In this document: piece by piece, positions 28,848 to 54,279 of the stretch
How the letters are laid out: each line of letters opens with the position of its first letter
How positions within the stretch are numbered: position 1 is the first letter of the stretch
Assembly: GCA_951406725.2 (NCBI GenBank)
Contig: OX597843.1
Location: 14,074,001 to 14,138,000, forward strand
Reading direction: 5' to 3'
From: Octopus vulgaris
Lineage: Eukaryota
Length of the DNA stretch: 64,000 bases
Made by a program: the position numbers and the translations under genes
The notes under the pieces: model-generated
What the model was told of the DNA's origin: nothing
Seen by the model: the letters and a program-made list of their open reading frames with translations, nothing else
Databases searched by the model: none

Positions 28848-28936
28848 AATTGGTGAAAGCAAATGAAGAAAAATTCAAGAAGATGAAGGATATTTATGGC
28901 AAACTACGAGAGGAACATGTCACCCTGTTGAGAGTC
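28848..28936 (+). CDS. HIP1: HIP1 exon K: KLVKANEEKFKKMKDIYGKLREEHVTLLRV
   Basis: tttcttcag / gtaagt, 89 nt, phase 1-0. Matches KAQANEQRYSKLKEKYSELVQNHADLLRK. Confidence 0.95.
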
Positions 28937-30559: not shown

Positions 30560-30628
30560 CATGCCGAAGTAAGCAAACAGTTGAAAGATGAAAAGAAGTT
30601 AACAGAAGAAAAAGACATGTTATTAAAG
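30560..30628 (+). CDS. HIP1: HIP1 exon L: HAEVSKQLKDEKKLTEEKDMLLK
   Basis: gtcttgtag / gtacga, 69 nt, phase 0-0. Matches NAEVTKQV. Confidence 0.9.
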
Positions 30629-30860
30629 GTACGACCCAAATCATCATCATCATCATCATTATTATTATTGTCGTTGTTATTATTGTTGTTGTTTCAAGTC
30701 CAAATCCTTCCAGCATATAATCTGCTTTCCACTATCCCCTGCCCCCTCTGTCAATAACAAAACCCTTTCTCAGTCTGTAAATAGTTGGGGGGGGGGTCTA
30801 CCTAATGTACTGTTCTCTGTGAGGAGTGGAATAATATGTAGCCTTGTGTCTCTGTTACAA

Positions 30861-30865
<5 letters not shown>

Positions 30866-30892
<27 letters not shown>

Positions 30893-31215
30893 CATTATTA
30901 TTATTATTATCGTCATTATTATTATTATCATTATTATTATTATCATTATTATTATCATTATTATTATTATTATTATCATTATTATTATCATTATTATTAT
31001 TATTATTATCATTATTATTATTATCATTATTATTATTATCATTATTATTATCATTATTATTATTATTATTATCATTATTATTATTATTATCATCATTATT
31101 ATTATTATCATTATTATTATTATCATTATTATTATCATTATTATTATTATTATTATCATTATTATTATTATTATCATCATCATCATCACCATTATTATTA
31201 TTATTATTATTATTA
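30866..31215. repeat. (ATT)n/(ATC) trinucleotide microsatellite, ~350 bp
   Basis: Direct inspection; source of the poly-Ile and poly-Asn ORFs. Confidence 0.95.
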
Positions 31216-31859
31216 TGGAAATTGCAGCTGTGATACCAGTGCCGGTGGTACGTAAGAGAACCATCCGAACGTGGCCGTTGCCAGCGCCGCCCCAGCTGGC
31301 CTCGTACCGGTGGCACATAAAAAGCACCATCCAATCATGGCCGTTTGCCAGCCCCGTCTGGCATGTAAAAAGCACCCACTACACTCAGAGTGGTTGGCAT
31401 TAGGAAGGGCATCAAATTGTAGAAACACTGCCAGATCAGACTGGAGCCTGGTGCAGCCCTCTGGCTTCCCAGACCCCAGTTGAACCGTCCAACCCATGCT
31501 AGCATGGAAAACGGACGCTAAACGAAGATGATGATGAAGAAGATTATTATTATTATTATTATTATTATTTAAGGTGGCAAACTGACAGAGCCATTCGCAC
31601 GCCAGGCAAAATGCTTCGCTGCGTTTTGTCCGTCTTTATATTCTGTCTTCAGATTCTGCCAAAGTTGACTTTACCTTTCATACTTTTGGGGGTTGATTAA
31701 ATAAGTACCAGTGAAACAAGGGTCGATGTAATCGAATTGACCCCCTCCCCCAAAATTTCAGGTTTTGTGCCTTTTGTAGGAAGGATTATTCTTATGAAGG
31801 CAGTGAGCAGCCAGAACTGTTAGCGTGTCGGACAGAATGCTTAGTGGCATTTGTTCTGC

Positions 31860-32084
31860 GAGATGGCAGAATCAGTAGCACACCGGGCGAAATGCTTAGC
31901 TGTATTTCGTCTGCTGTTACGTTCTGAGTTCAAATTCCGCCGAGGTCGACTTTGTCTTTCATCCTTTCAGGGTCGATAACTTAAGTACCAGTTACGCACT
32001 GGGGTCGATGTAATCGACTTAATACCTTTGTCTGTCCTTGTTTGTCCCCTCTCTGTGTAGCCCCTTCTGGATAGTAAAGAAATA
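31860..32084 (+). mobile_element. Meta-like SINE with Tx1-like tail, nested in a related SINE
   Basis: 14-bp TSD GGCATTT(G/C)TTCTGC with one mismatch. Confidence 0.8.
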
Positions 32085-32458
32085 GGCATTTCTTCTGCTT
32101 TTATGTTCTGAGTTCATGTGCCACCCAGATCAACTTTGCTTTCATCCGTCTGGGTTTCATCACGGGGCTTCATGGAATCGACAAGCCCCTTTCCCCTAAA
32201 TTTCAAGCCTTGTACCTATAGTAGAAAGGATTCTTCTTCTTATCAACAGTAGTGGTAAGATGGTGTGAGCTGGCAGAATCCAAAATGCTAACAGAATTTC
32301 ACCCGTCGCTAAGTTCTGAGTTCAAATTCCCTCCAGGTTGACTTTGCTCTTGCATCTTTTCAGGGTCGATAAAATAAGTGCCAGTTAAACACGGGGTTGA
32401 TGTAACTGACTCATTCCCCTCCCCCAAAATTATGGCCCTTGTGGCAAAATTTGAAACC

Positions 32459-32506
<48 letters not shown>

Positions 32507-32771
32507 GTTGTTGTTAGCACTCTGGATAAAATGCTTAGCAGCATTCCATCCATCTTGACATTCTGAGTTCAAATTCTGCCAAGATCAACTTTGCCTTTCA
32601 TCCTTTCAGGGTCAATAAAATAGGTACCAGTCAAGCACTGGGGTCGACTTAGCCTCCTCTCCAAAAATTACTGGCCTTGTGCTAAAATTTAAATCATTAT
32701 TATTATTATTACGGAGATGTACTTGCATAGCGAGTGACCTGATCTGAGATTGTGTGCTGGAACGAAAACAG

Positions 32772-32979
32772 TTGCAGTGTGGAAGGTGTTTATAAGCCAT
32801 TTAAGAAACACACAAAAACCGTGAGATTCACTTCAACATTTAAATTTAATTTGTCAAAATATTTTCGTCGCTTTGAGACTGTGACGAAAATATTTTGACA
32901 AATTAAATTTAAATGTTGAAGTGAATCTAACGGCTTTGTGTGTTTCTTAAATGTCTTATAAACACCTTCCACGCTGCAA
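32772..32979. repeat. ~100-bp-arm inverted repeat with 9-nt loop
   Basis: ttgcagtgtggaaggtgtttataag...attttcgtcgc mirrors gtgacgaaaat...cttataaacaccttccacgctgcaa. Confidence 0.9.
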
Positions 32980-35694
32980 TTATTATTATTGTTATTATTA
33001 AAAAGGTAAGTGTGAGAGGTCCCACCTTCTGTATAAATCATAATATTTCTGTTATAATTTACAATGGGGTTATAAGAGAACTACAAAACCAGAGCCTTTA
33101 ACCCTAATGAAATCATAGGATATTCTGAATACTGAACCCCTTTTTCATTGTGCCACCAGGTGAGATCCATCACAAACTAGGATTCATACAGAAGGTGGGA
33201 TCTGTAGCACTTTCCTTTTTCTCTCCTTTTTTTTTTGTTTTGTTTTCTATGTTGTTGTTTCTTACCCACATGGCTCCCTTTTACACAGCTGTTATATTTG
33301 AGTTAAATTTCTAAATTAGTTTGTCTGCATATATGTATATAAATATGTATGTATATATATAAATTTAAGCCACAATATATGAATTCATTTAATCTGGTGA
33401 AACTCATTAAAAAAATGCTCCTGAATGTATCTTTCAACAAAACACATACAAAAGAAAAACATGAGAAATGTATAAAATTGTAAATAACGAGAGAAATATA
33501 CCTATATAAAAGAGGAAAAAACTTGCATGCTTTGGCTTTGGTAAGGATTCAATGGCACTAGACATGCTAGGATCAAGCTAAAAATTTACACACCTATAGA
33601 AGGCGTGGTGTTGTTGCGGCCAGAGTAGGTTTCAAGTCTCTATCTCGATAACAAAGGCCCGAAACAAGGCATTTTCTGTGAGTGAGTGGATGTCATACAC
33701 TATTGCCTTGAGTTGTGTTCACGCAACATGTTGGATTCTACATGTGACTGTGTTTACGCGAATGCAACGGAAACATTCAATTTTTGAGTTTTTTGAAAAA
33801 CAAAATATGAGCATATACGTATAAAAATTTCCTGAATCGATTGGAGCAAGTTTGAATTCTCTAGCTTGAAAAATGCAAATTCTAGCAGTTTTGAGTGTGC
33901 CTTTTTAAGGAGTTCTCAGTTGAAAATGGTGTCAAAAAATAGCTCAAAATGAGAGAATTATTTTGCAGATCGAATCACCTCAAAAATCGAACGGGAAGTG
34001 CTCTTAACCTATATATATAAAGCTGAAGTTGTCTGTGTGTGAGGGGCGAAACAAACCCGAGCAACGCCAGGTGATACTGCTAGTATACTACTATAAAAGA
34101 AATAAATTTTATAAAAGTATATTTCATATACATGTATATCTATATACTCACATACACACACATATATATACATGCAGTATAAAAAGGAAGAATGAAAGGC
34201 AAACAATTGGTATTAATTTAGAGTCTGGAATTTATCTTCCTCATTTAACGTCCATTGTCCATTCTAGCATGGGTTGGATGGTGTGACCAGAGCTAGCAAG
34301 CTGGAGAGCTGCACCAAACTCCAGTCTGTTTTGGCATGGCTTTTATGTCTGGGTGCCCTTCCTAACATGCCAACCACTTCACAATGTGTGTCGGGTGCTC
34401 TTTTAGATGGCCCTGCATGGACACTTTTATGTGACACTGGCTCAGGACTTGCAGGGCAATCCTGTCCAGCAGGGAGACTGGTTTTAATACTTCTGCATGG
34501 GTCTTCTCAAGTACCACAAGGAGCCGGGCATCTTGGCCCTTTGTATCTCACCCAAAAGATTCAGCCTTCTGAGGTCATTCTTCAGTACTTTCTTCCACAT
34601 CTTCCTGGGTCTCCTACTTTCACATGTCCCATCCACTTTCAGAGATTGGCGCTTCTTTAAGGAGCTGTTGACATCCATCCACATCACATGACCAAACCAA
34701 CACAACCTTCACTCTTGCACACAGCATATATTTAATAATTGCAGGGTTGTTAGAATAGTGTATCATAGAAATAAGGGTATAAGATGTGCAGACAGTCTTT
34801 TACAGCTGTTTCCTGAACAGACGTACATATGGTGCATTTCTCTGTGGTTGAAGATCAGCATTCCATATAATAGCAAAGGGAAAAAAGAAGTGGATCCCTA
34901 GTTGAGGATTTTAGTAGTTAGTAGTTTCCTTGTTGAAGGGAGAGTGAGGTAGGTCATTAGTGGAATGGCCTGTGTTTTTTTGGGGTTTTTTTTCAGTTCA
35001 AGTTGGAGTTTTAGGTGGTAAATCAACAGGAAAACTTATTGTGTATATTTATTTGATTATGTCATTAGCCACAATTTCACCTGAACACTATATTGCCACC
35101 ACCATCATCATCATCATCATCATCAGTCTGTTTTCCATGCTGGCATGGGTTGGATGGTTTGACAGGAACTGGTAAATCGGGGGACTTCACCAAACCCTAC
35201 TGTCTGCTTTGACCTGATTTCTTCAGCTGGATGCCCTTCCTAACGCCCCCGCTTCACCCCCGGAAATCTCTTGCATTATGGATGCTTCACATTCCAGTAA
35301 GTTCTTTAGCATAATGTAGGATTCTACAACACAAAAACCTGTTTTCCCTTTGAGTTCTGTTGAAAATGAAAGTTGCAGACAAAACTAGGTTTTTCTTGCG
35401 GATCTTTCCAGAATTTTCAGGACATAACAGTGGACATATGTATGTATGTGCCATCACCATCATCATCATCATCATCATCATCATATTAACCATTTAATGT
35501 CCGTTTGGCTTATGATTTTTAGATCATGACTACAATATCCGACAGCACATTGAACTGGCAAAAGTGAGGTGTACCAGTAATTTCAAAGGGCTCAGCCTTG
35601 TTACATTCTGTTTCAAGCTGAATCTCCCTGAGAACTACATTAGGGGTCCACCTGTATCTGTCCAGTGCTCAGCTCCTTGTACATTAATTTGGTC

Positions 35695-36121
35695 TCAAGC
35701 ATTTGTCTTATGAAGAAAGGCTGAAGACGCTCGACCTTTATTCTCTAGAAAAACTACGACACCGTGGTGATCTCATTCTTGCTCACAACATCATAAGCGG
35801 AAAGTGTAACCTCTTGAAAGAGCTGTTCTTCACTCCTGCTCCAGAGCGTCAGCTGCGGGGTCATTCCGAAAAGCTCTATCTGCAACGATTTCATCTCAAT
35901 CGAAGGAGAGGGGCTTTCTCCATCCGGGTTGCAGATCCGTGGAATAAGCTGCCGGACGAGATAGTGAAGATGCCGACGACCGCTCGGTTCAAAGTCTCTC
36001 TTGACCAGAAATGGCCTGAACTCTTTGCATGAACACCACCCTGTACATAACTCCATGTCCCCCTACGTGGCCTTGCTTTTTGCTTTTTGAGCCAAAAAAT
36101 TAACTTAACTTAACTTAACTA
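35695..36121 (+). mobile_element. 5'-truncated CR1-clade LINE fragment
   Basis: SYEERLKTLDLYSLE..RGDLI..RGHSEKL..WNKLP peptide and (TAACT)n tail. Confidence 0.9.
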
Positions 36122-36364
36122 ATTTCACAACCAAGCAATTCCATTGATTGGAACCCTTGTTATCATAACTGACTGAGTATCTGTGCATTACACTTGTATA
36201 TAAATGACATCCTTAATTTAGTATTAAATATTTGTACAAAATTATTTTTTGCCTCCATGGTTATTTTCGCCTTGTCCCATGGCGGATAAGTTGTAGCATC
36301 CCAGTTTTTCTTTCACTTAAAATCGTGTGAAAAATAATCTGACTTATACACAATAGTGTATCCT

Positions 36365-37992
36365 CATCATTTAATGTCCGCACAAGTGGGCTGGTTACAC
36401 CCCTGGCATAGCCCACAGGTTATGGTCTCACTTGGCTTGCCGGGTCTTCTCACGCACTGCATATTTCCAAAGGTCTCAGTCATTAGTCATTACCTCAGTG
36501 AAGCCTCATGTTCGGAGGTCGTGCTTCACCACCTAATCCCAGGTCTTCCTGGGTCTACCTCTTCCACAGGTTCCCTCAACCGCTAGGGTGTGGCACTTTT
36601 TCACACAGCTATCCTCATCCATTCTCGCCACATGACCATACAAACACAGTCGTCTCTCTTGCACACTGCAACTGATGTTTCTTAGGTTCAACTTTTCTCT
36701 CATAGTACTTACACTCTGTCGAGTATGCACACTGACATTACACATCCATCAGAGCATACTGGCTTCATTCCTTGTGAGCTTACGTATGTCCTCAGCAGTC
36801 AAAGCCCATGTTTCACTGCCATGTAGCATGGCTGTTCGTACACATACGTCATACAGTCTACCTTTTACTCTGAGTGAGAGGCCCTTTGTCACCAGCAGAG
36901 GTAAGAGCTCTCTGAACTTTGCCCAGGCTATTCTTACTCTAGCAGTTACACTTTCGGCACACCCACCCCCGCTATTGACTTGGTCACCTACGTAACGGAA
37001 ACTATCAACTATTTCAAGTTTTTCTCCCTGGAATGTGGCGCAAGTTGGTCTCTGCGCATTTTCAGTGTTTATTGCTCTTGAGCATCTGCCACATACAAAA
37101 ACCGTCTTCCTAGTTAGCCTTCCTTTGATATTGCTGCACCTCTTATGTGTCCATAGCTTACACTTGGTGCATCTTATAGAGTTTCTACCTACACCTTTTC
37201 TACAGATTGAGCAGGGCCATCTACCTGAAGGGATTTGTGGTTTGCCTGCCTTCCTACTTCTTAGGACTTTGGTTTTAGGTAGGTTGATTCTAAGGCTCTT
37301 CGATTAGAATCCTTGCTTCCACACCTGAAACTTCTCCTTTGGTTCTGATAGTGACTCAGCAATTAGAGCAAGGTTGTCAGCATAGAGGAGCTCCCAGGGA
37401 CATCCTGTCTTGAATTCCTCTATTATTGCCTGGAGGACTATGATAAATAGGAGGGGTCTGAGGACTGAACCTTGGTGGACCCCTACCTCCACCCGGAATT
37501 CTTCACTGTGCTCATTGCCAACCCTCACCTTACTAACAGCGTCCCTGTACATGGCACGCACAGCTTACACTAAACATTCATCTATCCCTAGTTTCCTCAT
37601 TGACCACCAGATAAGGGATCGGGGAACCCTGTCAAAGGCTTTCCCCATGTCAACGAAAGCCAAGTACAGAGGTTTATCTTTGGCTAGGTATTTCTCCTGC
37701 AGCTGTCTCACCAGAAATATGGCATCAGTGGTGCTTTTCCCTGGCACGAAACCAAACTTTATCTCATCCAAGCTGACTCTCTCCCTAATCAGTTGGGCTA
37801 TGACCCTCTCCGTGACCTTCATTACCTGATCCAACAACTTGATACCTCTGTAATTATTTGTATCTAATGTGTCACCATTTCTTTTGTAGCAGTTGACTTT
37901 GGTGCTGCTACACCAGTCATTGGGTAGGACTCCTTCGTGTATCACCTGGTTAATGATGCGGGTGACCAGGCTACAGCCAACGCTGCCAGATA
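36365..37992 (-). mobile_element. RTE-clade LINE fragment with disrupted reverse transcriptase
   Basis: NYRGIKLL, FGFVPGKSTTDAIF, AFVDMGKAFDRV, GVHQGSVL.PLLF, LLYADN, GRGRPRKTW motifs with frameshifts. Shorter related pieces at about 34480-34725 and 50650-51060. Confidence 0.93.
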
Positions 37993-38812
37993 TTTATATG
38001 CATATTGAAATCACAGTGGTTGATACTAGTGTTGCCTGACTAGCACCCATGCTGCTGGCACATAAGTGCCATTCAAGCATGAATCAATGCATGTAAAAAG
38101 CGCAATCCGAATATGGTGGATGCCAGTGACCCCTGACTAGCTCCTGTGCCGGTGGCACGTAAAAAGCACCATTGAAACATGGTCAATTCAAGTGCCCCCC
38201 CACCAACTCGCTCCTAGGCTGATGGCACATAAAAAGCGCTCCCCACACACTCGGAGTGGTTGGTGTTAGGAAGGGCATCCAGCAGCAGAAACCCTGACAA
38301 ATCAGATTGGGGCCTGGTGCAGCCTCCTGGCTTGCCAGTCCCCCGTCAGACTGTTCCACCCATGCCAGCATGGAAAGCAGATTTTAAACGATGATGATAT
38401 GCATATGCTTATATAAATTGGTCTCTTAGATCTCTGAGGAGGTAAGTATTAAGGTGAGCAACATTTTTCTGTTTTCCATATTTTAACTATTCTTCTTGTT
38501 GTTGTAATCAACTACGTATGCTCGTTAGTAAAATCCAATTTAGACTTCTGTTCATTTTCCAATTTCCTTGCATCTTGTTGTTGTTTGATGTTTGTTGTCA
38601 CAGACTGCACCCTCCCTCCCTACATGACCCCTACACGATGTCTGTACTGTCCTTTGTAATTCCTCCCCCGACCACGTTTTCACACTGGCTTTCTGTTCCG
38701 CCATAACCTGGTAGAAATAGCAGCCAAATCTCCCTCACATCACATTCCATGGAATGTTTTTTTTTTTTTGGTGTCATAGGATGGTTCCTTCAGGGTTGAC
38801 TTGGACCTAAAC

Positions 38813-39013
38813 CAGTGCTTTTCAAACTTTTTGCTGGAGCGGAACCCCAAGGAAGCGTTCCACTGGCCAGAGGAACCCCTGTGCAATAATTTAATAGTTT
38901 TATGCACACATATCTGCACAGGAGAATTAAAAATTACTGCCGATTTTAGCAGTTTTGTAACTTCTTGCGGAACCCCTGGATTGTACTGGTGGAACCCTGG
39001 TTGAAAACCACTG
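38813..39013. mobile_element. hAT (Charlie-like) MITE
   Basis: TIR CAGTGCTTTTCAA / TTGAAAACCACTG, 8-bp TSD ACCTAAAC. Confidence 0.85.
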
Positions 39014-39304
39014 ACCTAAACACTAGCCAACATTACTCACCACTGAAAGCAACATAAATAGAACCTGCTAGAAACAACAGTCAAACCACCTGCAAGTATC
39101 ACCTTATCTTTTACTTGGTTCAGTCACTTGACTAAGGCACAGCCTTGAAGGCTTTTTAGTTGGACAAACTGACCCCAGGACTTAATGTTCTTAAGCCTAG
39201 TACTCATCTTATTAGTCGCTTTTGCTGAACCGCTAAGTTACAGGTACCTCAACACACCAATACCAGTTGCCAAGTGGTGATGGAGGACAAACACAGCTCC
39301 AAAG

Positions 39305-39335
<31 letters not shown>

Positions 39336-40057
39336 TACATACATATATATTATAATATGACAGGCTTCTTTCAGTTTCCGTCATTGACCAAATCCACTCG
39401 CAAGGCTTTGGTCGGCCCGAGGCTATAGTAGAAGACACTTGCCCAAGGTGCCACGCAGTGGAACTGAACCCAGAACCATGTGGCTGGGAAGCAAACTTCT
39501 TACCACACTTGCCATGGTCATCTTTTAAACGGACAGATTTGGGATGAAGAGAAAGCTGGAATGGTCATGGCAGGCTGACCTTTAGCCATAGGTCTCCTCA
39601 ATCAAGTATCAAATTTTCTACATGCATATTCAGCCTTTTAGAAATAGCAGCTAAAATCTCCTTCAAATTTTAAAAAGGACTCCTTCTTTGAATGATGTGA
39701 TTCCTTGCACATAACAACAGGGTGGTCATGGTTGGTACAGTATTGATCATAGCTCTACTGGATCATGACTAACCTAGGGCTAAACAACCTCCTCCACTTC
39801 TCATTCCCTTCTCTTCCGACTTCATTTTTGTTTTTTGTTTGTGATATTTTGTTAAAAAATTTTTTTAATTTGTTGTTTTTATTTTGTTTTTCTTTTTTTC
39901 TACCCTTCACCCCCCCACCACCACCACCACTCGCCTCCCGATTTTGCCATTGTGGCCTGAAATTGACCTCTGGGTCCACCTTGCATGCTTTGACCCACTG
40001 CGTTCTACCCTGGGTGTGGGTTGGCTGGGCTGTGATTTGAAACCTTGAACCTAGTAG

Positions 40058-40195
40058 AAGACAACCAGTGAGCTGGACAGTGTCCGTGAAGAGCAGAAAC
40101 AGCTTGAGGTGGCCACCCAGGCCAAGACTGACCAAGTCTCCCTCCAACTGCAATCCTCCACTCAACAATGTTCACAACTGGAGAAATCTTGTCAG
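40058..40195 (+). CDS. HIP1: HIP1 exon M: KTTSELDSVREEQKQLEVATQAKTDQVSLQLQSSTQQCSQLEKSCQ
   Basis: Open coiled-coil-like frame, donor CAG|gtttgt, 138 nt, phase 0-0. The acceptor is a tandem ctag-tag-aag, so the exact start (40058 vs 40061) is uncertain. Confidence 0.82.
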
Positions 40196-41057
40196 GTTTG
40201 TTATTCCTTTTTTTTTTTGGTCCTGTTTCTTCTCCCTCCTCCCTACTGGTCCCCCACTTTGCCCTCCATCCACTCCTTCACCACTCCATCCCCATCTCAT
40301 TCCTCCCTGACCTCTATCGCCTCTGACCTCCATCCTCCTGTCATTCATTCGGCCTCCAGTTGTCCATCTACCCCTCCCCTAATCTCCATCTCCCACTCCC
40401 TCTTCCATCCACCCCTGCCACCCGGTTAACACCGAAATCCTCCCTACCCCCCTCCCCTGACCACCATCCCTCTGTCATCCATCCATGCCCCTCCCCCAAG
40501 CCTCCATCCACCCGACAGCTTAGCCGTGCCTCTGTTTACCAATTATTGAGGGTAGACATCATTTGGGCTTCTTTAGGCCATCATTGATGACGTGGGATCA
40601 TGTGACTGGGTGGGTGCTGGGAAGTGTTTCTTCAGAATCGCTGCTTTCAGTTTCGGATACAGAAATATCCTATTCATTCTCGTACACCACGTGCTTTTGT
40701 ACCTCATTCATTCTTTCTCTCAATATTTCCATATTTTCCATTGAAAGACCTTCAAATTCGGAGTTATTGCTTGATAGCATGAAACTTCTGTCCATTTTCA
40801 AAGTTGAAAAAAAAAATTAATGCCGTAAAAATGTGGAAAAAAAATCTCCCAAAATTCACTGAGTTCAGATATTGGGTCAAGCAATGTCGGGTACTATAAC
40901 TCAACTATTTGCAAAGTGAAATCACGTATTTTCACAAATGTACTAATGAGATTTGTGCTTAAATTCACATTTAAATAACAGTGGGTACTCGCGGCCTGGT
41001 TGGAACCAAGAAATTTTTCAGCCAGCTACAGCCGGGTTAGTATCAAAAGTGTTAACA

Positions 41058-41824
41058 GACAAACATGGACATCTGGTAGAAAAATATGACAAATGTGGAG
41101 ATCTCGTAGAACAATATGATGAACTGGGACATCTGGTAGAACAATATGATGAACTGGGACATCTGGTAGAACAATATGATGAACTGGGACATCTGGTAGA
41201 ACAATATGACAAATGTGGACATCTGGTAGAACAATATGACAAATGTTGAGATCTCGTAGAACAATATGACAAACATGGACATCTGGTAGAACAATATGAC
41301 AAATGTGGACATCTGGTAGAACAATATGACAAATGTGGACATCTGGTAGAACAATATGACAAATGTGGACATCTGGTAGAACAATATGACAAATGTGGAC
41401 ATCTGGTAGAACAATATGACAAATGTGGACATCTGGTAGAACAATATGACAAATGTGGACATCTGGTAGAACAATATGACAAATGTAGACATCTGGTAGA
41501 ACAATATGACAAACGTGGACATCTGGTAGAACAATATGACAAATGTGGAGATCTCGTAGAACAATATAACAAACGTGGACATCTGGTAGAATAATATAAC
41601 AAATGTGGACATCTGGTAGAACAATATGACAAACGTGGACATCTGGTAGAACAATATGACAAACGTGGACATCTGGTAGAACAATATGACAAATGTGGAC
41701 ATCTGGTAGAACAATATGACAAACGTGGACATCTGGTAGAACAATATGACAAATGTGGACATCTGGTAGAACAATATAACAAATGTGGACATCTGGTAGA
41801 ACAATATGACAAATGTGGACATCT
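41058..41824. repeat. 30-bp minisatellite, ~25 units of GGACATCTGGTAGAACAATATGACAAATGT
   Basis: Exact 30-nt period visible in the 60-column layout. Confidence 0.97.
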
Positions 41825-42324
41825 AACTGGACGGACAGGCATGAGCGTTTGGTTGAACAGAGACACAAAAATATTTGACTGGACACATGGATATCTGATA
41901 GAGAGACACAGACTGGACATCTGACTGGACAGACAGACATGTAGACATGAGGTTGCTTGCCCGATTGTCCAGGACCTCCAACCGGTGATGGTCAATGATA
42001 AGTAATCAAAATTAATCCCAGCGCCACCAGAAACCAAAAAAAAAAAGTCAAAAAAAGAAATGAAGACATTCTTTTTGAAAACGAAACCCCAAAAAGTCTT
42101 TTGTATTTTTCCTTGTTGATGTTATCGTTGTTGTCATTTCCTTTCAGTAGAAAATCTTGGAGTCTTCTGCAATGTCCCGATTTGCATCTTGCATGGGTGT
42201 CTTCTCTCCGTTCTCTCTTATTCTTGTCTCTTTGTTGCTCGTCGCATGCCCCAAAACACCGTCTTGTGGAGCATGCATTCTTCATTGTAGTTGATAATGC
42301 CATCATCATCATTATTATTATAAC

Positions 42325-42360
<36 letters not shown>

Positions 42361-42619
42361 GGTTGTTGTTGTTGTTGTCGTTGTCTCCAGGCTAGTTAGT
42401 GTCTGTCATAGCAGAGTAACAAAATGCTTAACAACTGATATTATTCTCTCTTTTGGGGGCCATGTGTACTTTAACATACATGTCTGTCCGTATGTCTGTA
42501 TACATATTTATTGCATTCACTCTTTACCTCCCTCTCCTCCCCTCTATCTATTTATCTCTCTTTCTCTCTCTTTGTGAGTAATGTATGTATGTGCCCCCCA
42601 TTTCTCTCTCTGTATATAT

Positions 42620-42838
42620 CAGTGCTTTTCAAACTTTTTGCTGGAGCGGAACCCCAAGGAAACATTCCACTGGCTCGAGGAACCCCTGTGCAATAATTTC
42701 ATAGTCTTATGCACACATATCTGCACAGGAGACTTAAAAATTACTGCTGATTTTAGCAGTTTTGAAACTTCTTGCGGAACCCCTGCACTGTACTGGCGGA
42801 ACCCTAAGGTTCAGAGGAACCCTGGTTGAAAATCACTG
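42620..42838. mobile_element. hAT (Charlie-like) MITE, second copy
   Basis: Same body as 38813-39013; TSD GTATAT(A/G)T. Confidence 0.85.
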
Positions 42839-43332
42839 GTATATGTATATATGTGTGTGTGTGTGTGGTGGGGTATGGATTAGCTCACCTTGTCAAAAAA
42901 TACTAACAGAGGAAAGGGTGTCCGTTTTATCTTATTGACCATTTTAACCAGCACCAGGGTTTAATAGTGTGTGTGTGTGTGTGTGTATACATACTTGGTT
43001 CTGGAAATGTATACACCCCCAATGGATGTAGTAATAAAATACCAGAAAATACTGTAAACACCAAATATATTACAAGGTGGATGTGCTAAGCAGTGACATG
43101 TACAAATGCAATGCTATTCCCGGTTTGACTATGCCAGGGGCAAGTTTGAATTTGTAAACCAGCGGTTCTTCACTGTGTTTTGTCATGGAGAAAATTTCTT
43201 GCTTTTGACAAATGGTGTAGAAACATACATGCACACACACACACACACATACATTAGTAGTTGTCATTGTTGCATTGATGTGAGGTAAATATTTGGGTTG
43301 AAAATCCTGGAAATGTTGTCTGAAAAGTTATA

Positions 43333-43644
43333 TCTTTATATATAAAACTGAAGTTGTGTGTGTGAGACTCTGTCTCCTCCAATTTAGATTCCTAACTACT
43401 CCCACATTTTGCGGTGCAGTTTAACCAAAAGCAGGTATCTTATAGTCGTGATTCATTTTGAGCCCTTCTCGGTATTAGCACGCTTCTACGATGAGTCTAC
43501 GATTTAAAAAAAAAATTTACCATCATTTTTTGGTTTTTTTTAATGCATTTTTTACTCGGTTTTATATAAGGGAAGTAACTCTCTAAAAATGCTTATATAG
43601 TTATTTCCCTTACAAACCCAAGCAACGCCGGGCGATACTGCTAG
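43333..43644 (+). mobile_element. Non-autonomous Helitron-like element
   Basis: A|TC start, subterminal CCC..GGG hairpin, CTAG|T end, no TSD. Confidence 0.75.
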
Positions 43645-44734
43645 TATAACATAACGAATTTGGAGGAAAATTAATTCACCATTACACATTTGCTATTAGG
43701 AATTACAAAAATATACATGCCGGATAAACATGAAAGAAATTTTCAGTTAGAAATTCTTTTGACAGAGAATCAAATAATCCAAAATTTATTTTTGGATGAG
43801 GCATTTATATGTAGTAATCTGGAGTCATATAAAAAGATGGAAGGATAGATAATAGGAAAAAGATAAATGAACACAAGTAGACCAAATGAGTATATTTGCA
43901 GAGTTCAAATGAACAGAGAGGATTATATAATGGTCTTATCTTTACAGCTGTTTCAGGTGAAGCAGAGCTTATGCCATAACCATGTCTATGGCTCAGAATA
44001 TCCTGATGAGAGTAAGGTGACTTGCCTCACAGATCTATAAATATTTCTTATTCCATACACTTTTTATAATGTAAAAGATATGGTTACAGCATCAACTCTG
44101 GCTTTCATGAAAGAGCGAGAACAGCCAAACGGAACAAGAGCAGAGTTTTGCTCATTGTCGGAATCAACCAGACAGATCACTTCAGCTAGAATAGCTATGC
44201 ACCACCACCACTCACAGTGGGAGATGCATGGCTTAGTGGTTAGGGTGTTAAGTTCATGATTGTAAGGTTTTGGTTTCGGTTCCTGGACTGGATGATGCAT
44301 TGTGTTCTTGAACAAAATACTTCAGTCCACCTAGCTGACAGAAGTGAGTAACCCTGCTAGGGACTGGCGTCCCATCCAGTGGGGGAATATATACACCACA
44401 TGGAAACTGGGGAACTGGCCCTTTTGAATCAGTATGTCTCTGAGAAGGTAATCTTTACCGTTGCCACCATTCATGGAATCGAGAAAGAGTTACTAATCTG
44501 TCAACCCTGCAGTTGTCTGGCCCAGGAGGGTTGTCTTAGGTTGAGTCAAATTTAGCTGCAAATTCCACTCAATTGTGGTCCCCTCCAATTGGTTTCTAGG
44601 AGTTTCTGTTTTGCAACCCTAACACCATCTCCTCATTTCTTGGAACTAATGGGTTCCTGTGCAGGTCAGCCACAAACTAGACTTTAGCTGTAATGGCTAC
44701 ACTAATTTGCATAATGTCAGTTGACTGATTGAAT

Positions 44735-45435
44735 AATAAAAATAATAATAATTAATTCATGTATTGGCCACAAGGGCTAACAAAAATCAATTAAAACATA
44801 AAGGGACAAAACACAGGACGAAAGTTACAAAGGGTTTTGTCCATTTGAAAATGGCCGTGTACAAAATCAGGATAACAACGAAATATAAGTAACAATTAAA
44901 ACTGCCAATAGGGGGAGGCGCTTCGAAAGGTTACTTGTGGAAAAACCCATAAAAGCCACGGGAGCCTGGTCAAAAGGCGGAGTAGAGAACCCCTTTCTCC
45001 TTTTATATTTCCTTTTAATTTTTCACAGGTGTATCCTCAGAATTGGTCCATTCATACTGGCCATTCTTCCGACATTCACCCAGCTTTCAATAAACTTGCT
45101 ACCAGCCATCACTTCCCTCTCTACTCTCACCTTCCTTTGAAAAAGTTGATGAGGCCTTGGCCAAAGAGGAAAGTGTCTGACCGTAGCCCTTTCAAACGGG
45201 TCCACCATATCGCCTCTGTCGCTACAGCCACTAGGCAAAGGAAAACTGCCTTGCCCTCCCGGTTAAAGGAGGTCGGCGGGGAAATCCTCACTATGGATTC
45301 AGCTGATAGCCAGATCCGTCCTATACACGACAGTAGCTGTTCGATATAAACCCATAGTTCAGCAATACTCGGGCTCTGGACGAGTGCATGCAGAACGGTT
45401 TTGTCGTGCTGGGCGCACCTTGGGCAGGCCCGTCG
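44735..45435 (-). mobile_element. L1/Tx1-clade LINE 3' fragment
   Basis: Minus strand CPRCAQHDKTVLHALVQSPSIAELW (decayed CCHC knuckle), then AIWWTRLK, a 3' UTR and an (ATT)n tail. Confidence 0.75.
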
Positions 45436-45684
45436 TGTGTGTTATGCCTCTGGCTCCCACTCTCTTCCACTATGCGTGTGTGTGTGTCTGGCTCTCTTTT
45501 TCTTCTTCACCCTCTCTCCCCCTTATTTTTCTCTCTCTTTCACTCTCTCTCTATTTCTCTCCTTCACTCTCTCTCTCTCTCTCTCTGTATATATATGTCT
45601 ATATCTACATATCTATATACCTATATGCATATATGTATCTTTTTCTCTCTCTCTCTCCTTTGTCATGCACACTCTCGGGGACAG

Positions 45685-45822
45685 GCTGCTACTGCCGCTG
45701 CTGCTGCTTCCCAAGGCAACCACCCATCCTCCACGACAGCAGCAGCCTCATCACCACCGCTTCCGCCATTACCATCACCACCACCGCCACCACCAGCCCA
45801 ACACACCAACGATGATTATGAG
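45685..45822 (+). CDS. HIP1: Candidate alternative cassette exon, Ala/Pro-rich: AATAAAAASQGNHPSSTTAAASSPPLPPLPSPPPPPPAQHTNDDYE
   Basis: First AG after about 255 nt of AG-free pyrimidine-rich sequence, donor GAG|gtaaag, 138 nt, stop-free, phase 0-0 like the host intron. No homology support. Confidence 0.45.
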
Positions 45823-48347
45823 GTAAAGCAGTGTAGCAGGGGGCAGGCAGTGGGGGGCAAGGGACAGGGAGGAGGGATTTTTTTTTTACCCTTACCCCCA
45901 CCCCCACCCTTCCACTCATTCAGTGCACTCCAGCACCCTTCACTTTTACATTCCATTTCTGACCCCTTGGGCTGTTTATTAAGATGCTAACCACCACCAC
46001 CACTCCTCCCAAGCTAAACCCATTAAACTCATTTAGGCTTCATTAAAGGTTTTTCCATCTTTGTGACCCTTGATACAGTCTGTCCTTAGCCTTAGTTCCT
46101 CTCGTGTACAGTTGGCCCCTACATCAAGCAGTGAGACCTCTTCAATCTCTGGTTTTCAGTATAGCTGCCAGTATCTTCCCAACTGATACAATTTGGTGCT
46201 ACAACTCTTTTTAGGGGGGTTTTTTTTTTTCATACCCGTCTTGGGTCTTCATTTTTCTCACAACCTCCTGCATCTTCCCAAGTGCTTCTAAGTTGCTTCT
46301 GATCTTCGTAGGTGGTGTACCCTGTCTCTTTGGGGTTTCCCTTTCTTTCTTTTTAGCCCTCTACCCATTCCTTCTGTAAAGCTATCTTCGGTCTTCATTC
46401 TTCTCTTAGTCCCAGCATCTTCCCAAGTGCTGCTACGTTGCTTCAGATCTTCGAAGGTCTTCTTGAGTTTCCCTCTTTTCCTTTGTCCCTCTAGTGGTAC
46501 CCATGTTTCACTCTTCTTTCCCTCACACCCTCCCCCTCGACCTGCTCAGTCTGGCCCTCCCAGCTCTTCACAGTTTCTGGTTCTGTCCCTGTCGGTGATT
46601 TTCAGTATTTTGTGTATTTTCACTATTGGTAGAACACATTTGACCCCTGATGAATTATTTTCAAATCTTTGTCTTCATTAAATGCTTATTTTTGTGATCC
46701 TTAGATAATCGAACCATTAAGGCTTAATTGAAGGGTCTCCCTCTTTGTGATCTGCATCCTAAATCCTTCAGTGATGATGGCAGTTTCTTCATGTTCAAAG
46801 ATCCTGTGGAAGAGCAGTGACCTGTCAACCAGCCCTTGATGCCCCTGAGCTTTCTTCCTGCTTATGCTTAAGTTTTAAGTTGAGAGTCACTTTGCTCAAT
46901 CTGTTCCCATTCTTTAGACTTTGATGTCTGGCTAAAGTGGCTCAGTGATTTCAGATGGCTGCAGTGCTCAGCAAGTTGTAGGTTTTACATTAGAGTGGCC
47001 TTCTGTTAGGTGGACTGTGTTACGGGGCTGGAGTTACTGGAAGGGTGTCAAAAATGGCAACCAGACCCCTTGAGGAACTTCACTCCTTGATTCGCTGTCC
47101 AGGTTGATTCCTCAACTCGTTTCCTTTCCCAAGGCACTCACAAAGCAGTGAGGGTTTGTGCCCAGAGTTTCTTCCATAACCTGCTAATCAGCCCCTAGCT
47201 GGGGCCCTGACAGTTGCTACTACTAAGGGTCAGAGAAGAGCTGGGTTCCAAATGAGTTAAAGCATGGTACCACACTCCTTAAAACCCTGGAACTCCCAAA
47301 TCAGGGTTCTGCTGCCAGAAGAAGTTTAAAATCATACCGTGGATTAAACCCTTCAATAATAATTCATTAAAAGATTAGGGATGTTGGGTGTGTTGTGGGG
47401 AGGTTTGCTTCTCTCAACAAAGGGTTTATTTGGGGTCGGGGTGCAGAGGGTAAGGCATTAGTCTTTATGATCTTTGACCGCTTTGGACCTTGGGTCACCA
47501 CTGAAGCTTTTATCTGCTCTCCTCCTATAACCCCATCTCCACAATGTCCACCACAGCCTTCACTTCACCATCAACTGATGATGAGGAGGAGGATTCATTC
47601 ATGTGAGGAAGGATGTGCACAGGTATCAGAAAGGCATGAATGTCACAACGCAGCACCCGATTTCCTTACCTCCCTTTCCCTCTTCACTTTGAAAACCTTT
47701 GTCCTTTAATACTAGACTAACAGACCATGTCATCATCATCATTCTCATTGTCGTCATCATCAACATCATATTTGTTATCAGCGTTGCCATCATCACCACC
47801 ACCATCATCATCATTGTTGCTGTCATGGCTATATATGAAAGGGTTTGAAAAAAAAATGGTTTAAAGCCTTCATTGTCACCATCATCTTCCCCACCACCAT
47901 CGCAATCATCATCATTATTTGCAATTAAAAAAAGAGAAAAAAAGGCACTAATTATAAGAGTCGGACAAAATGCCTTGCAGCAGTCGAGTTTAGGTTTGTC
48001 ATGTTCTGGGATCAAATCCTGCCAAGGTCATGCTTTACTGTTCATGCTGTCATACAAAGCACCTGTAAAATACTGGACTTGATCTAATCAACAAACCTCC
48101 CCCCCTCCGGTGCCATGGTGGAATTAACAATCACGTCATTGAAATATCTCAAAGCTATAAGATAATGCATAATTAAGAACAAAGTGAATGAACAAGCGTT
48201 ATATTTAAGAGAGAGAAAGCTGAATGTTACAGGGTTAAGCATCAACCATTTGCAATTTGTGAATTTTCAATAGAATCAGGAATATGCGTTGGTGTTGTTT
48301 GACCATATTGCTGTAATATTGTGAATGGCATTGCGAGGATCTTCATG

Positions 48348-48769
48348 GGATCTTTTCGGTTTGAACGGCAGTTTTTAAAAATAATTTCCACGTAACTAAA
48401 CACTTTTAAACTTCGTATACTGGTAGAATGTATTTATAAAACATCTTTTTCTCTTGGCTTTATTGAGAAAATTCTATAGTTTCTAAGATATTTGTTGTTT
48501 TTTTTCTTCAATTTCTGCAATTTCAAACAATCAATGACGTCTATTGAGGTAAAAAAACATTCTGTGCCGTTTGAATATGTCCCTCGTTTAAGAAACAGAT
48601 TGGGTTTGTTTACATTTGTGAAGAAAAAAAGATACCCTTCCCCCACCCCTAACTAACCCTGACCCTAAAAGAGATTGAAATGCAATAGATCGATACTAGG
48701 GTCATAATTATGGGTGACAATTTCATATGACACTGCTAGAAAAAACTGCCGTTCAAACCGAAAAGATCC
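48348..48769 (-). mobile_element. Merlin-like MITE (inverted relative to 12971 and 21609)
   Basis: TIR GGATCTTTTCGGTTTGAACGGCAG, 8-bp TSD TCTTCATG. Confidence 0.85.
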
Positions 48770-49227
48770 TCTTCATGTACTTTGGCTCTTAAAATATTCT
48801 TTCTTGTTGGGCAAAAATTCATTATCAATGGGAAATACCTAAGAACGGTGATATTTCAATAGATTCCATGACTGGCAGTCCACTGGCACAAATCAGTCAA
48901 TGTTGTATTTTAGGTAAACCTTTATAAGATCTGTTTAAAGTTGTCTCCCGTAGGTATTTCTCACTGACAAAAGCTAAGGAGCTACAAACATCGATGTTGG
49001 GAATCCTGATAGAGGGCGACACTGAACAGATATGGTTGTTTCTTAACACCTTTTTGCTTTAAGAGAAAAGTTTCACCACAGTAAAAGCAGTGAATTTATT
49101 TTTTAGTAGTTGAAATATGTCACAAACAGACTTTAACTAACCTAAACTTTGCCTAAACACTGCTTGGAGATAATATTTCAGTTACATATATATATATATA
49201 GATAGATAGATATATATATATATATAT

Positions 49228-50212
49228 ACACACTCAAAATAAGCAACAAGAATAACTTTGGTAATTTGGTACGATTGTTTCACGCTACATCATTTTATTA
49301 AATGTTGTAAGTATTACAACAGTTTTAAAATGTTGAGCAATCATCAGCCTTTAAAAGAGGTTTTCCATTAATACATAATTTTCATATCTTGTTGCTTATT
49401 TTGATTATAATCAACCCATGGATTTATATGGATAACACCATACAAAATTCTGGTGCATCTAACTTAAGTACCATATTCATTTGAATCTAAATTTTGCTGA
49501 ACATATATATATATATATATATTTTCTGTTGTGTCTGGGGAGAGTCTTTCTCTTTTGGTGCCTTATAATTTAACACACTCAGCAGTAAAATTTCCACTTA
49601 TTTCTTTTTTTATTTTTCTATATAGATATAGATATATATATATCTATATATAGATAGATATATATATATCTATATATATAGATAGATATATATATATCTA
49701 TATATATAGATAGATAGATATATATCTATATATATAGATAGATAGATGTATTTTTATATATATATTTCATTTTCAAAGACTACTGAAGAAGTTGCAAGAA
49801 GCAACGAAAATTTTAGAAAAATAAAAAAAGAAATAAGTGGAAATTTTACTGCTGAGTGTTAAATTATAAGGCACCAAAAGAGAAAGACTCTCCCCAGACA
49901 CAACAGAATATGCTTCAAGACATATATATATATATATGTTCAGCAAAATTTAGATTCAAATGAATATAGTACTTAAGTTAGATGGACCAGAATTTTGTAT
50001 GGTGTTATCCATATAAATCCATGGGGTGATTATAATCAAAATAAGCAACAAGATATGAAAATTATGTATTAATGGAAAACCTCTATTAAAGGCTGATGAT
50101 TGCTCAACATTTTAAAACTGTTGTAATACTTACAACATTTAATAAAATGATGTAGCGTGAAACAATCGTACCAAATTACCAAAGTTATTCTTGTTGCTTA
50201 TTTTGAGTGTGT
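49228..50212. repeat. ~1-kb foldback: ~390-bp near-identical inverted arms (49228-49620, 49814-50212)
   Basis: Arms are reverse complements with a few substitutions and small indels; the spacer is mostly TA/TAGA microsatellite. Confidence 0.95.
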
Positions 50213-51961
50213 GTATATATATATATAAGCACCATTTGAGCATGATCATTGCCAGTACCGGTTGGCTGGTCCCATACCAGTAGCACAGGTGCTATGCCAA
50301 TGACTTCACTTGCCACTCAATAGGTTTTATATATATATATATATATGCCAGTGCAGCATAACCAACCCGTTTAAGAGCAGCCTTCAATCATTGGACAATA
50401 AACTGCGCTTGCAAAGACCTGTTGAGGCAAGTGAAGTCCTTGTCTTGGCACCTGTGCTACTTGCATGGGACCAGTGAACCGAATCTGGCAATGATCATGC
50501 TCAAATTGTGCTTATTACATTCCACTGGCACGGGTGCCAATCAGGCGGTACTGTCATTGGCCACGATAACGACTTCACTTGACTCAACAGGTCTTTGTAA
50601 GTGCAGTTTATTGCCCAGTGATTGAAAGGTTTTGCTGCACTGGCACCATGGTTATGGGCCCACTTGGCTTGCTGAGTCTTCTCAAGCACAGCTTATCTCC
50701 AAAAGTCTCGGTCACTTGTCATCGCCTCAGTGAGGCCCAACGTTCAAAGGTCGTGCTTCACCACCTCATCCCAGGTCTTCCTGGGTCTACCTCTTCCACA
50801 AGTTCCCTTCACTGTTAGGGTGTGACACTTTTGCACACGGCTGTCCTCATCCATACGCAGCACATGACCATACCTGCACAGTCATCTCTCTTGCACACTG
50901 CATCTAAAGCTTCTTATGTCCAACTTTTCTCTCAGGGTGCTTACACTCTGTTGAGCATGCACACTGACATTACACATCCAGTGGAACATGCTAGCTTCAT
51001 TCTTTGCAAGCTTATGCATGTCCTCAGCAGTCATGGCCCATGTTTCACTGCCATGTTGCTTTTGATGAACTACTAAGTTATGGGGACATAAGCCAGTGCC
51101 AGTTTGTGTTGGGGTGGGTGGTGGGGCAAAAATAAAGACACACACATATATTATGATATATATGTGTGTGTGTGCATATATATATATGTATATATATATG
51201 TGTGTGTGTGTATATGATGAGCTTCCACACAGTCTCTGCCTTCCAAATCCATTCACAAGTCATTGATCAGCCTGGGACTATCGTAGAAGACCCTTGGCCA
51301 AGATGCTGTTCTGAGGGGCTGAACCTGACAGCACATGGTTGCAGAATGAGCCTCCTAACCACACTGCCACACCTGCACCTCTGTAAGTATTCCACCAACA
51401 CTGTGGGCCCTAAATATAATTCCCAGGGAAGCTCAACATGACACAGCCTCTAAAACCGTTCCTCAATGTATTTCAAAGACATGGCACAGTCACACATTGA
51501 AGAATACTTGAGTGTTGAGGGATCAAGATCTTTACTCAGGCCTTCTTTTGATGTAATTAGTTAGAACTGCTTGAGATATACGAGGTGAAGGCATTGTGGC
51601 CTTGTGGTTAAGGCATTGCACTCACAATTTCAGCGTCTTGATTTCAATTCCTGGACTGGGTTGTGCATTGTGTTCTTGAGCAAGACACTTCATTTCACAT
51701 TGCTCTGCAATCAATCACTTTGATACCTGATGTATGGCACAGTGTGCCTGTTCAGGCAATGTCAATTTGATGGAGAAAATGAGCTAATGGACGGCACAAG
51801 TGTTTAATCACTACGAAACCGATCATTTGTGCCGGAGGAGGTTGTTCAGCAAGAACTAGCAGGACCTTCTTCTGTCCCCTATGACAGGAGAGTCGATCAG
51901 GTTTGTGATGGAATCCATAGCAGGAATCATCAAGTAATGACAAATGAACACTGCTTTGTTG

Positions 51962-52655
51962 GGAGCTTTTCCGTTTGACCGGCAGTTTTTTAAAAATAAT
52001 TTCCACGTAACTAAACACATTTAAACTTTGTATACTGGAAGAATGTGTTTATAAAACATCTTTTTCTCTTGGCTTTATTGAGAAAATTCTATAGTTTGTA
52101 AGGTATTTTCTTCAATTTTGGCAATTTCAACCAGTCAATGACGTCTATTGAGGTGAAAACATTATCTACCGTAAAATTTTCTGGCGGTGAAATATGAAAA
52201 TGTCCATCGTTTAAGAAACAGATTGGGTTTATTTACATTTCTGAAGGAAAAAAGATACCCTTCCCCCCCCCCCCCCTAACCCTAACCCTAACAGATTGAA
52301 ATGCAATAGATCGATACTAGGATCGATACTGGACACATAAAGAGGGAACGATTTTGTTATCCAGCTCTGTTTACGTGTGATCCCTCAATTTATGGCCACA
52401 GGGTATCTTTTTTCTCATAAAAAACAGACGTTTTCATATGACACCACCAGAAAATGTTACGGCAGAAATCGTTTTCACCTCAATAGACGTCATTGATTGG
52501 TTGAAATTGCCGAAATGCAAGAAATATAGAATTTTCTCAAGAAAGCCAAGAGAAGATGCTGCTTTATAAACACATTCTACCATTATACGAAGTTTAAAAC
52601 TGTTTAGTTACGTGAAAATTATTTTTAAAAACTGCCGGTCAAACGGAAAAGATCC
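51962..52655. mobile_element. Merlin-like MITE variant with ~250-bp inverted ends
   Basis: GG..CC termini, 8-bp TSD (C/G)TTTGTTG; both ends resemble one end of the 400-bp family; internal CCCTAA repeats. Confidence 0.75.
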
Positions 52656-52766
52656 GTTTGTTGCATTGAGTGCTCTTTCTGTTTATGCTCTTCACTGTCA
52701 AAACGAAAATCTCTGTTTCTGTATCTCTCTCTCTCTCTCTCTCTCTCTCTGCACTCTGACCGACAG

Positions 52767-53172
52767 GAATTGACCAAGGAAATCGAATTAATCAAAGCCC
52801 AGAAGCTCCAGCTGGAGACGGATCTGAATGACGTCCGTTCCAGCAGCCTTGCATTGGAGGAAAGCCTTCAGGTGACGAAGACGGAGAAAGAGGAAACGGC
52901 GGAAAAACTGCAGAAGCAAGTGAACTGTTTACAGAATGAACTGGAAGAGAAGACCAAGGAGATGGTGGTTGCTAAGGAGACGCTGCAGAAGGAGATGGAA
53001 GGGGTTCAAAGCCAACTGAAGAGCAGCCAAAGTACACAGCAGACAGCAGAGGAGAATTATACCAAAAATAAAGAGGAGATGGAGAGGAAATACGAAGATT
53101 TATTGACGGAAAAGAAAACCAGCGACAATGAACGTGAAGAGGCCCTCAAGAAACTCTACCAATTACTTATCG
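52767..53172 (+). CDS. HIP1: HIP1 exon N (long coiled-coil exon): ELTKEIELIKAQKLQLETDL...EEALKKLYQLLI
   Basis: CT tract + gacag / gtaaga, 406 nt, phase 0-1, E/K/Q-rich heptads. Confidence 0.93.
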
Positions 53173-54279
53173 GTAAGATGGAATTATTGGTTTGTTCTAA
53201 TGTTTGCTCTCTCTCTCTCTCTTGCCCAACTTCTCTTTCTCCCTACCTCTCTTTCTCTCCCTCCCTCCCTCTCTCTCTCTCCCCCTCTCTCTCCCCTTCT
53301 CTTCCTCCCTCTCTCTCTCCCCTTCTCTTCCTATTTCTCTCTCCCTCTATCTCCCTCCCTCTCTCTCTCCCTCCTCTCTCTCTCCCTCCTCTCTCTCTCT
53401 CCCTCCATCGCTCTCTCTCCCTCTCTCTCCCTCCCTCCTCTCTCTCTCCCTCCTCTCTCTCCCTCCATTCTCTTTTTTCTCCCTCTTCTCCCATTGTTCT
53501 CTCTTTCATCTTCTCACTTTATTTTTCAGATCCCTGACTCTATTGTAACAAAACCTGGCTTAGTGACCGGGATATTGAACTCCTGATCATAAAGCCTTTG
53601 GTGGTTCTATTCTCAGCCCCAGCAACACATTTTGCTCCTTGAGCAGAACCCTTCATTTCATGTTGGTCCAGTCTATTGAGTAGTAAAAGGAAATATCATT
53701 GCAGAGGACTAGCAACCTATCTTGGGGGAAATCTTGTATTTCTACCCAATCACGCATAAAAATATTTTAAAAACTGGGATAAGTTTGTGTTGGATGAGCA
53801 TGTGTGGCTGTCTGGTAAGAAGTTTTCTCTCCAACCACAAGGTTCTGGGATCATTCCTACTGTGTGGTACTTTGAGCAAGTGTCATGTGCTACAGCTCTG
53901 GGTCAACCAAAGATTTGTGAGTGGATCTGGTAGATGGAAACTGTGGAAGCCTGTAATGTGTGTGTGTGTGTGTGAGTATGCATGTCTGTGTGTATATGTT
54001 TCTATGTGTCTGTGTTACCATCTCCTTGCCTTGACATTGTGTAATAGTCGTAAACAAGTGTCCCTGTCATACAGGCAGTGTCCTTTGTTTCCTATCTTCC
54101 ATGAAGAACGTGTCTGGTCATGAGGAAAGCTTACCTTCGTTGGAAACAGGTTGACAGGAAGAGCCATCTGACTGTAGAAAACCTGTCTCAAGGAATTCCT
54201 TCCGACCCATGCAAGCATGATTATAGCATAGTGGGGGTCGGGGGATAGGGTAAATATCTGGATTAACTAAAACTAATTG

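Follow-up and report, generated by a model that had tools for sequence, protein, structure and literature searches.

Sla2 and HIP1R form the load-bearing link from the endocytic coat to actin, and their rod is regarded as a fixed dimeric spacer. The HIP1 locus of Octopus vulgaris raises the question of whether this rod can be exchanged in part by splicing. An initial annotation of the window, by which we mean the whole stretch of 64,000 nucleotides analysed here, had suggested that an intron within the coiled-coil region conceals a proline-rich cassette exon, which would break the rod and add a docking site for regulators of actin. Here, we ask whether this segment, exon X, is spliced into RNA, how it relates to the neighboring exon M, and what its inclusion might do to the protein.

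The octopus HIP1 gene

The window covers residues 135-814 of a HIP1-family protein, in a genome of 2.8 Gb and 227 contigs, and the exon map was built by matching peptides exactly to two annotated Octopus vulgaris proteins. The protein contains an N-terminal ANTH domain (PF07651, residues 29-293, E 3.3e-63) and a C-terminal I/LWEQ (THATCH) domain (PF01608, residues 911-1059, E 1.9e-47), both scoring over the Pfam cut-off. Matches in the PDB comprise the HIP1R ANTH domain (7ost), THATCH (1r0d), the HIP1 coil (3i00/2qa7), and Sla2 (9hdd). The central coiled coil is represented by the 3i00/2qa7 matches and by a weak profile match to 2no2 (462-551, E 0.0017), and single-sequence searches of the PDB with exon M or with the L-M-N segment gave no matches. 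The octopus protein shares its ANTH - coiled coil - THATCH/I-LWEQ layout and its light-chain motif with the Sla2/HIP1/HIP1R family, from which it differs in having an isoform that swaps part of the coil for a predicted disordered segment.

A genome search for I/LWEQ returned three matches, which fall into two loci: one lies a short way downstream of the window, and the other, likely talin, is on a different contig. Given that I/LWEQ occurs at these two loci and that the ANTH exon matched the genome once, the octopus genome likely contains one HIP1-type gene, as judged from sequence. Beyond the window, the C-termini of proteins P0005, P0007, P0008, and P0003 display more alternative splicing in O. 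sinensis and O. bimaculoides (a 15-aa insert and alternative tails). The features on which the following sections draw are:

28848..28936, + strand: exon K, most of the segment matching the clathrin-light-chain site, in both isoforms
30560..30628, + strand: exon L, common upstream exon, the last 30 nt of which precede X in RNA contigs
39778..40052, + strand: AG-free zone before M, 275 nt (278 by a 12-nt convention), the longest such zone among 20 acceptors, with a weak tract (50% pyrimidine) proximally
40058..40195, + strand: exon M, 46-aa helical rod segment replaced by X, acceptor TAGTAG/AAG
45428..45682, + strand: AG-free zone before X, 255 nt, pyrimidine-rich, made up of CT/TA repeats, its proximal tract being weak (55% pyrimidine in -25..-4)
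45685..45822, + strand: exon X, optional phase 0-0 exon encoding 46 aa, or 48 aa in the allele of the RNA runs, residues 493-538 of L-X-N
45839..45876, + strand: G-runs after the X donor, five runs
52767..53172, + strand: exon N, common downstream exon in which the rod continues

Splice signals of exon X

The AG-free zone that had first drawn attention to X is 255 nt long and 77% pyrimidine, which makes it the eighth longest gap among the 3471 AG positions on the + strand of the window. The borders and reading frame are as originally described, with the acceptor GACAG/GCT at 45685, 138 stop-free nt, and the donor GAG/gtaaag at 45822, which matches the consensus at six of nine places. The G-runs noticed beyond this donor are also present: five runs with 20 G, the most of 19 donors. 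They are probably splicing-enhancer sites of the hnRNP F/H type. When the + strand of the window was scanned for exon-like units (30-300 nt long and in frame, without stops, preceded by an AG-free zone of at least 100 nt and followed by a GT[AG]A donor), three matches were obtained: X, a known exon, and one further unit. The peptide encoded by X has an Ala-rich start, a Ser/Thr/Pro-rich middle, and an acidic end (DDYE).

Two further proposals held in part. The flanking exons are in phase 0, which agrees with the suggested phase 0-0, but X does not lie between M and N in RNA contigs, where it replaces M. Likewise, the suggested equality in length of M and X applies to the assembly (138 nt each) and not to the contigs of all four RNA runs described below, in which six additional letters, read as two further Ala codons in both runs inspected at this level, bring X to 144 nt; since equal length is allele-dependent, we dropped it as an argument. 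The Ala codon run at 45685-45708 is a length polymorphism: the assembly and DNA run X20 have two codons fewer than the aligned RNA runs and the O. sinensis proteins. Run X20 comes from another organism and keeps the donor, and its contig stops at the acceptor; DNA run X19 contributes a 31-nt piece only.

Exon X is joined to exons L and N in RNA

Twenty of the 24 listed runs contain part of 45400-45900 (all but X21-X24), none of them on record as RNA, and seven of the 24 were aligned. Alignment of four RNA-type runs (X2, X7, X10, and X14; four studies, two organisms) to 41900-53200 revealed spliced contigs carrying X in all four. In run X14, a contig of 1329 nt (record 12) reads through X straight into N, and runs X10, X2, and X7 provide one 202-nt contig each, exactly covering X plus ~30 foreign letters per side. 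In X10 and X7, the letters before X are those of the L end (30599-30626) and the letters after X those of the N start, and these contigs therefore represent the form L-X-N. In X2 and X14, the alignment start at 45683 fits the L end (AAG) but not the M end (CAG). L upstream of X is thus read directly in two runs, while in X2 and X14 it is implied by where the alignments start. The contigs cross introns of 15056 nt (L-X) and 6944 nt (X-N) at canonical borders.

These contigs also bear on the junctions by which the exon was to be recognized. The L-X junction (30628-45685), expected if M and X are mutually exclusive, was found in contigs of X10 and X7, and the X-N junction (45822-52767) in contigs of X10, X7, and X14. 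The M-X junction (40195-45685) did not appear: the contigs show L before X, and M combined with X was seen only in O. sinensis RefSeq proteins and other molluscs. An M+X form was not among the contigs of the four RNA runs, and contigs drop rare forms. Because the contigs share 30 letters and then diverge at the first X base, the path competing with X would start with a non-G base, which is true of M but not of N; we base the L-M-N form on annotation and on this contig geometry. Depth of X relative to N amounted to 0.42, 0.43, 0.36, and 0.55 in the four runs, which are rough values, contig depth being a poor measure. At 52904 in exon N, the RNA runs differ between A and G, either as an allele or through editing: X14 shows both letters, X2 and X7 have G, and X10 has A.

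It had been cautioned that decay of a microsatellite could mimic an exon, and contigs might in principle also stem from a retrocopy. The core of X indeed has 54 further matches at repeat-like sites elsewhere in the genome, yet over partial lengths; the only full-length match among the 55 is the locus itself, and a retrocopy origin of the contigs is therefore unlikely, as far as sequence comparison can tell. X is also present in the annotations of two species, and the contigs join L, X, and N in frame across both introns. The L-X-N contigs refute the reading of X as a non-exon, which we consider hardly credible. The microsatellite caveat, set aside for the exon, likely does apply to the origin of its proline core (see below). 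We conclude that X is almost certainly a real exon that replaces M.

The exon is not hidden, as had been thought, given that both Octopus annotations (O. vulgaris and O. sinensis) already contain it. In O. vulgaris, CAI9744434.1 corresponds to L-X-N and CAI9744435.1 to L-M-N; in O. sinensis, XP_036370809.1 and XP_036370811.1 correspond to L-M-X-N; and all four O. bimaculoides proteins contain M only. The three entries with X (CAI9744434.1, XP_036370809.1, and XP_036370811.1) are automatic isoform entries without an account of the switch or of its spread in molluscs, and a search among shorter protein fragments gave one match to X in 5295 candidates. The full-text literature, apart from supplements and most subscription journals, yielded no account of exon X or of the switch, which might still be listed in genome-wide tables of splicing events. 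Exon X itself is annotated; its either-or use with M and the slot shared among molluscs are apparently undescribed.

The choice between M and X

Among the 20 acceptors in the window, those of M and X have the longest AG-free zones (278 and 255 nt, followed by 151 nt), and their proximal pyrimidine tracts are among the three weakest. The probability for M and X to take the top two ranks is 1 in 190, a figure noted post hoc. Both zones exceed the length of at least 150 nt that serves as the criterion for a distant branch point, and human exons with long AG-free zones are enriched for alternative splicing (PMC1431707). Weak YTNAY matches lie at -179 to -122 relative to X, and the 320 nt before X contain no CTRAY-type branch-point match. 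X would be expected to use a distant branch point. We infer that M and X are oppositely regulated through their AG-free zones and weak acceptors of the distant-branch-point type, and that exclusion would be leaky.

Since both exons are in phase 0-0 and 5489 nt apart, neither decay of frameshifted RNA nor steric block enforces the choice, and both mechanisms were ruled out. When 30560-46300 was scanned for inverted repeats that could serve docking/selector pairing, 189 pairs were obtained, the 25 longest of which are dispersed or simple repeats, and none was credible. Similar to mutually exclusive exon pairs with distant branch points, of the alpha-tropomyosin/alpha-actinin type, M and X are both preceded by long AG-free zones and are used in an either-or manner. 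In contrast to these pairs, M and X are not duplicates, their distance of 5489 nt precludes a steric block, their exclusion is leaky, and their branch points are putative. Strict mutual exclusivity fails in O. sinensis (P0002, P0005), a cuttlefish-like protein (P0034), Pomacea, scallops, and Ostrea, all of which have M together with the optional segment; judged from these protein sequences, exclusion is common and not strict. No L-N form skipping both exons was present among the mollusc proteins examined, annotations and contigs being weak ground for absence.

Several other features of these introns were recorded. At 40053-40060, M has a tandem acceptor, TAGTAGAAG, of which the first AG would introduce an in-frame stop and the third would remove one Lys. 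The M-X intron contains 25.6 copies of a 30-bp unit (41058-41824), one frame of which stays open over long stretches as a 10-aa repeat. A near-perfect palindrome of ~218 bp at 32767-32984 has arms that are 92-96% complementary and is MITE-like, and open stretches in the L-M intron (35688-36029 and 37386-37826) resemble LINE fragments by eye.

A predicted hinge next to the light-chain site

AlphaFold2 models (monomer, pTM 0.33-0.34) predict one unbroken helix at 435-690 (256 residues) for L-M-N, whereas L-X-N is modeled as a helix at 432-498, a coil at 499-546 (48 residues), and a second helix at 547-692. The models thereby agree with the earlier suggestion of an isoform that breaks the rod. 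As 46 helical residues measure ~6.8 nm, the use of X in place of helical M by regular alternative splicing of the HIP1 gene would turn ~7 nm of rigid coiled-coil rod into a flexible hinge that follows closely on the clathrin-light-chain site.

The conserved light-chain site of Sla2 (site 2) spans 478-505 (10.1101/2024.11.14.623549). By motif offset, it corresponds to octopus 449-476, and the site-2 residues to Y456, R460, H463, L466, and L467; this candidate light-chain site is kept in both isoforms. The M/X swap starts at 493, that is, 17 residues past the site. A second Sla2 site (515-546) is described in the same source as fungal-only and unconserved in animals; it would map to octopus 486-517, overlapping M.

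Light-chain binding reduces the actin binding of HIP1/HIP1R (PMC8712872), and fission-yeast End4p/Sla2 passes piconewton forces from actin to the membrane (PMC11476202). Given that the light chain lowers actin binding and that a homologue transmits force, a hinge that separates the light-chain site from the actin end would likely change reach, stiffness, or regulation of the molecule. We therefore favor, with a probability of roughly 0.6, the reading that X is a swappable hinge which would retune the coupling of the clathrin coat to actin.

Proline motifs and docking

The proline-rich character of X had been taken as a sign of docking. By matching of motif patterns, we counted seven PxxP, two PPLP, one EVH1-like motif, and one run of six Pro, and YEEL is formed across the X/N junction. 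Sequence patterns for EVH1 ([FYWL]PPxP), WW group II (PPLP), and profilin (five or more Pro) are present in X; class I/II SH3 and PPxY patterns are absent from O. vulgaris X, which has no Arg/Lys. In a docking cassette, PPLP/LPPLP/P6 and YEEL would recruit SH3, WW, EVH1, profilin, or SH2 partners, which may coexist with a hinge, and X would be a single octopus gene's optional counterpart of the cortactin site of HIP1R. The cortactin-binding proline-rich domain of HIP1R is C-terminal. The octopus HIP1 C-terminus lacks a proline-rich tail, which, along with the single ANTH exon match and the two I/LWEQ loci (one of them the gene of X), speaks for such a role.

The family also offers precedents: the proline-rich domain of HIP1R binds the cortactin SH3 domain (PMC6912373), and the Sla2 linker 274-312 binds the Sla1 SH3 domain through a motif that depends on its Arg in AF3 models (10.1101/2024.11.14.623549). 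Like X, these are proline-rich segments in endocytic actin linkers of the family; in contrast to X, which is optional and inside the rod, they are constitutive and outside it, and the Sla2 motif has the Arg that X lacks. RPLPPLP is a ligand of the Fyn SH3 domain (PMC7703624), and the PLPPLP of X is one residue short of it, yet without Arg/Lys the class I/II SH3 and PPxY patterns fail.

Other observations weigh against docking as the reason for X. X is built of GCT, GCA, and CCA repeats, and the codons of its proline core are mostly CCA. Similar motifs arise often from such sequence: 45 CCA-rich 16-codon windows at seven look-alike loci gave PxxP in 43, at least five Pro in 26, an EVH1-like motif in 13, and PPLP in 12, in a biased sample chosen for likeness to X, at loci that may or may not be coding. 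A codon-position test of the proline core gave deviations of 4/2/5 against a background of 192/154/122, a number of sites too small to reveal selection. Of 151 further family proteins, 65 bear the light-chain motif, and none of these has a proline run of more than two within 110 residues after it; six family proteins have proline runs elsewhere, which precede the coil in four and are C-terminal in two. The cuttlefish-like counterpart of X has one Pro and no Tyr at that place, and the proline motif is absent from it and from all other mollusc segments, so that only Octopus has the run and the tyrosine. By this comparison, the proline run was likely added within Octopus. The docking cassette thus appears rather unlikely to us. 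Under the hinge reading, the conserved point would be the hinge and not the proline run, the core of which likely grew by slippage of CCA repeats inside an already disordered exon.

The same slot in other molluscs

We compared 25 homologues together with members of 10 of their clusters (for Mytilus, 15 of 32); three short proteins without the anchor motif were left unclassified, and exon borders outside Octopus were deduced from protein differences, not genomes. M measures 46 aa throughout the compared molluscs, and optional segments occur at the M/N boundary. P0034, which clusters with Acanthosepion pharaonis HIP1, has a segment of 31 aa; the segment measures 15 aa in Pomacea, Mya, and Mercenaria, 14 aa in Mytilus, and 13 aa in two scallops and Ostrea. 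It is found without M in one of ten proteins of Pomacea, one of two of Mya, one of three of Mercenaria, one of seven of Mizuhopecten, and in Mytilus, and together with M in seven of the ten Pomacea proteins, scallops, Ostrea, and the cuttlefish-like protein. Argonauta (2/2) and several single proteins have M only. Two Mytilus models carry odd extra inserts. Given that cuttlefish, snail, and bivalve versions carry optional segments at the same spot, a splice switch at the M/N boundary is likely old in molluscs.

The segments differ in sequence and length (13-48 aa), and position is their common feature. Octopus X and its cuttlefish-like counterpart share the Ala-rich start and acidic end and are more similar than shuffled sequences (0/5000), a result inflated by low complexity. 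Snail-clam and mussel-oyster segments are each similar above shuffles (0/2000 each). Between the groups (cephalopod, snail and clam, scallop, mussel and oyster), similarity did not exceed shuffles, and it is therefore possible that segments arose independently in one intron. The snail/clam segment has an acidic-aromatic motif ending in GW that is conserved across two classes (P0016, P0020, P0044, P0048). In snails and clams, this candidate short binding motif speaks for binding more than for a plain hinge, and its retention also lends some support to docking.

Alternatively, the rod might be dispensable at this place and admit in-frame exonisations, giving near-equivalent isoforms with independently acquired segments. 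The missing similarity across groups, the repeat composition of X, the difference in its Ala run between assembly and RNA runs, and the wide variation in rod length across the family are compatible with such tolerated variation. However, X reaches 0.36-0.55 of the contig depth of N (a poor measure) in the four runs, long AG-free zones are paired before M and X and accompanied by G-runs, octopus and cuttlefish-like segments resemble each other in spite of the reservation made above, the segment is conserved between snail and clam, and M skipping is coupled to use of the segment in five genera beyond Octopus. We judge tolerated variation to be distinctly unlikely and retain the swappable hinge.

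A broader reading would join these observations: one regulated splice slot in the force-bearing HIP1 rod, directly behind the clathrin-light-chain site and kept since the split of snails, bivalves, and cephalopods, would exchange a helix for a docking cassette that differs by lineage, with an acidic-aromatic motif in snails and clams and polyproline plus YEEL in Octopus. Taken as a whole, this proposal is doubtful. If true, a single gene would yield a rigid tether as well as a hinged form that recruits partners, a division for which vertebrates use two paralogues. The picture of the pathway is unchanged by X unless a function is shown. Under the sequence of events favored here, X would be a clean case of microsatellite slippage adding binding-like motifs to an older alternative exon. 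Octopus HIP1 offers a natural pair of isoforms whose only difference would be whether 46 residues beside the light-chain site are rigid or flexible, and which may be used to test the role of rod continuity in light-chain regulation and force transfer.
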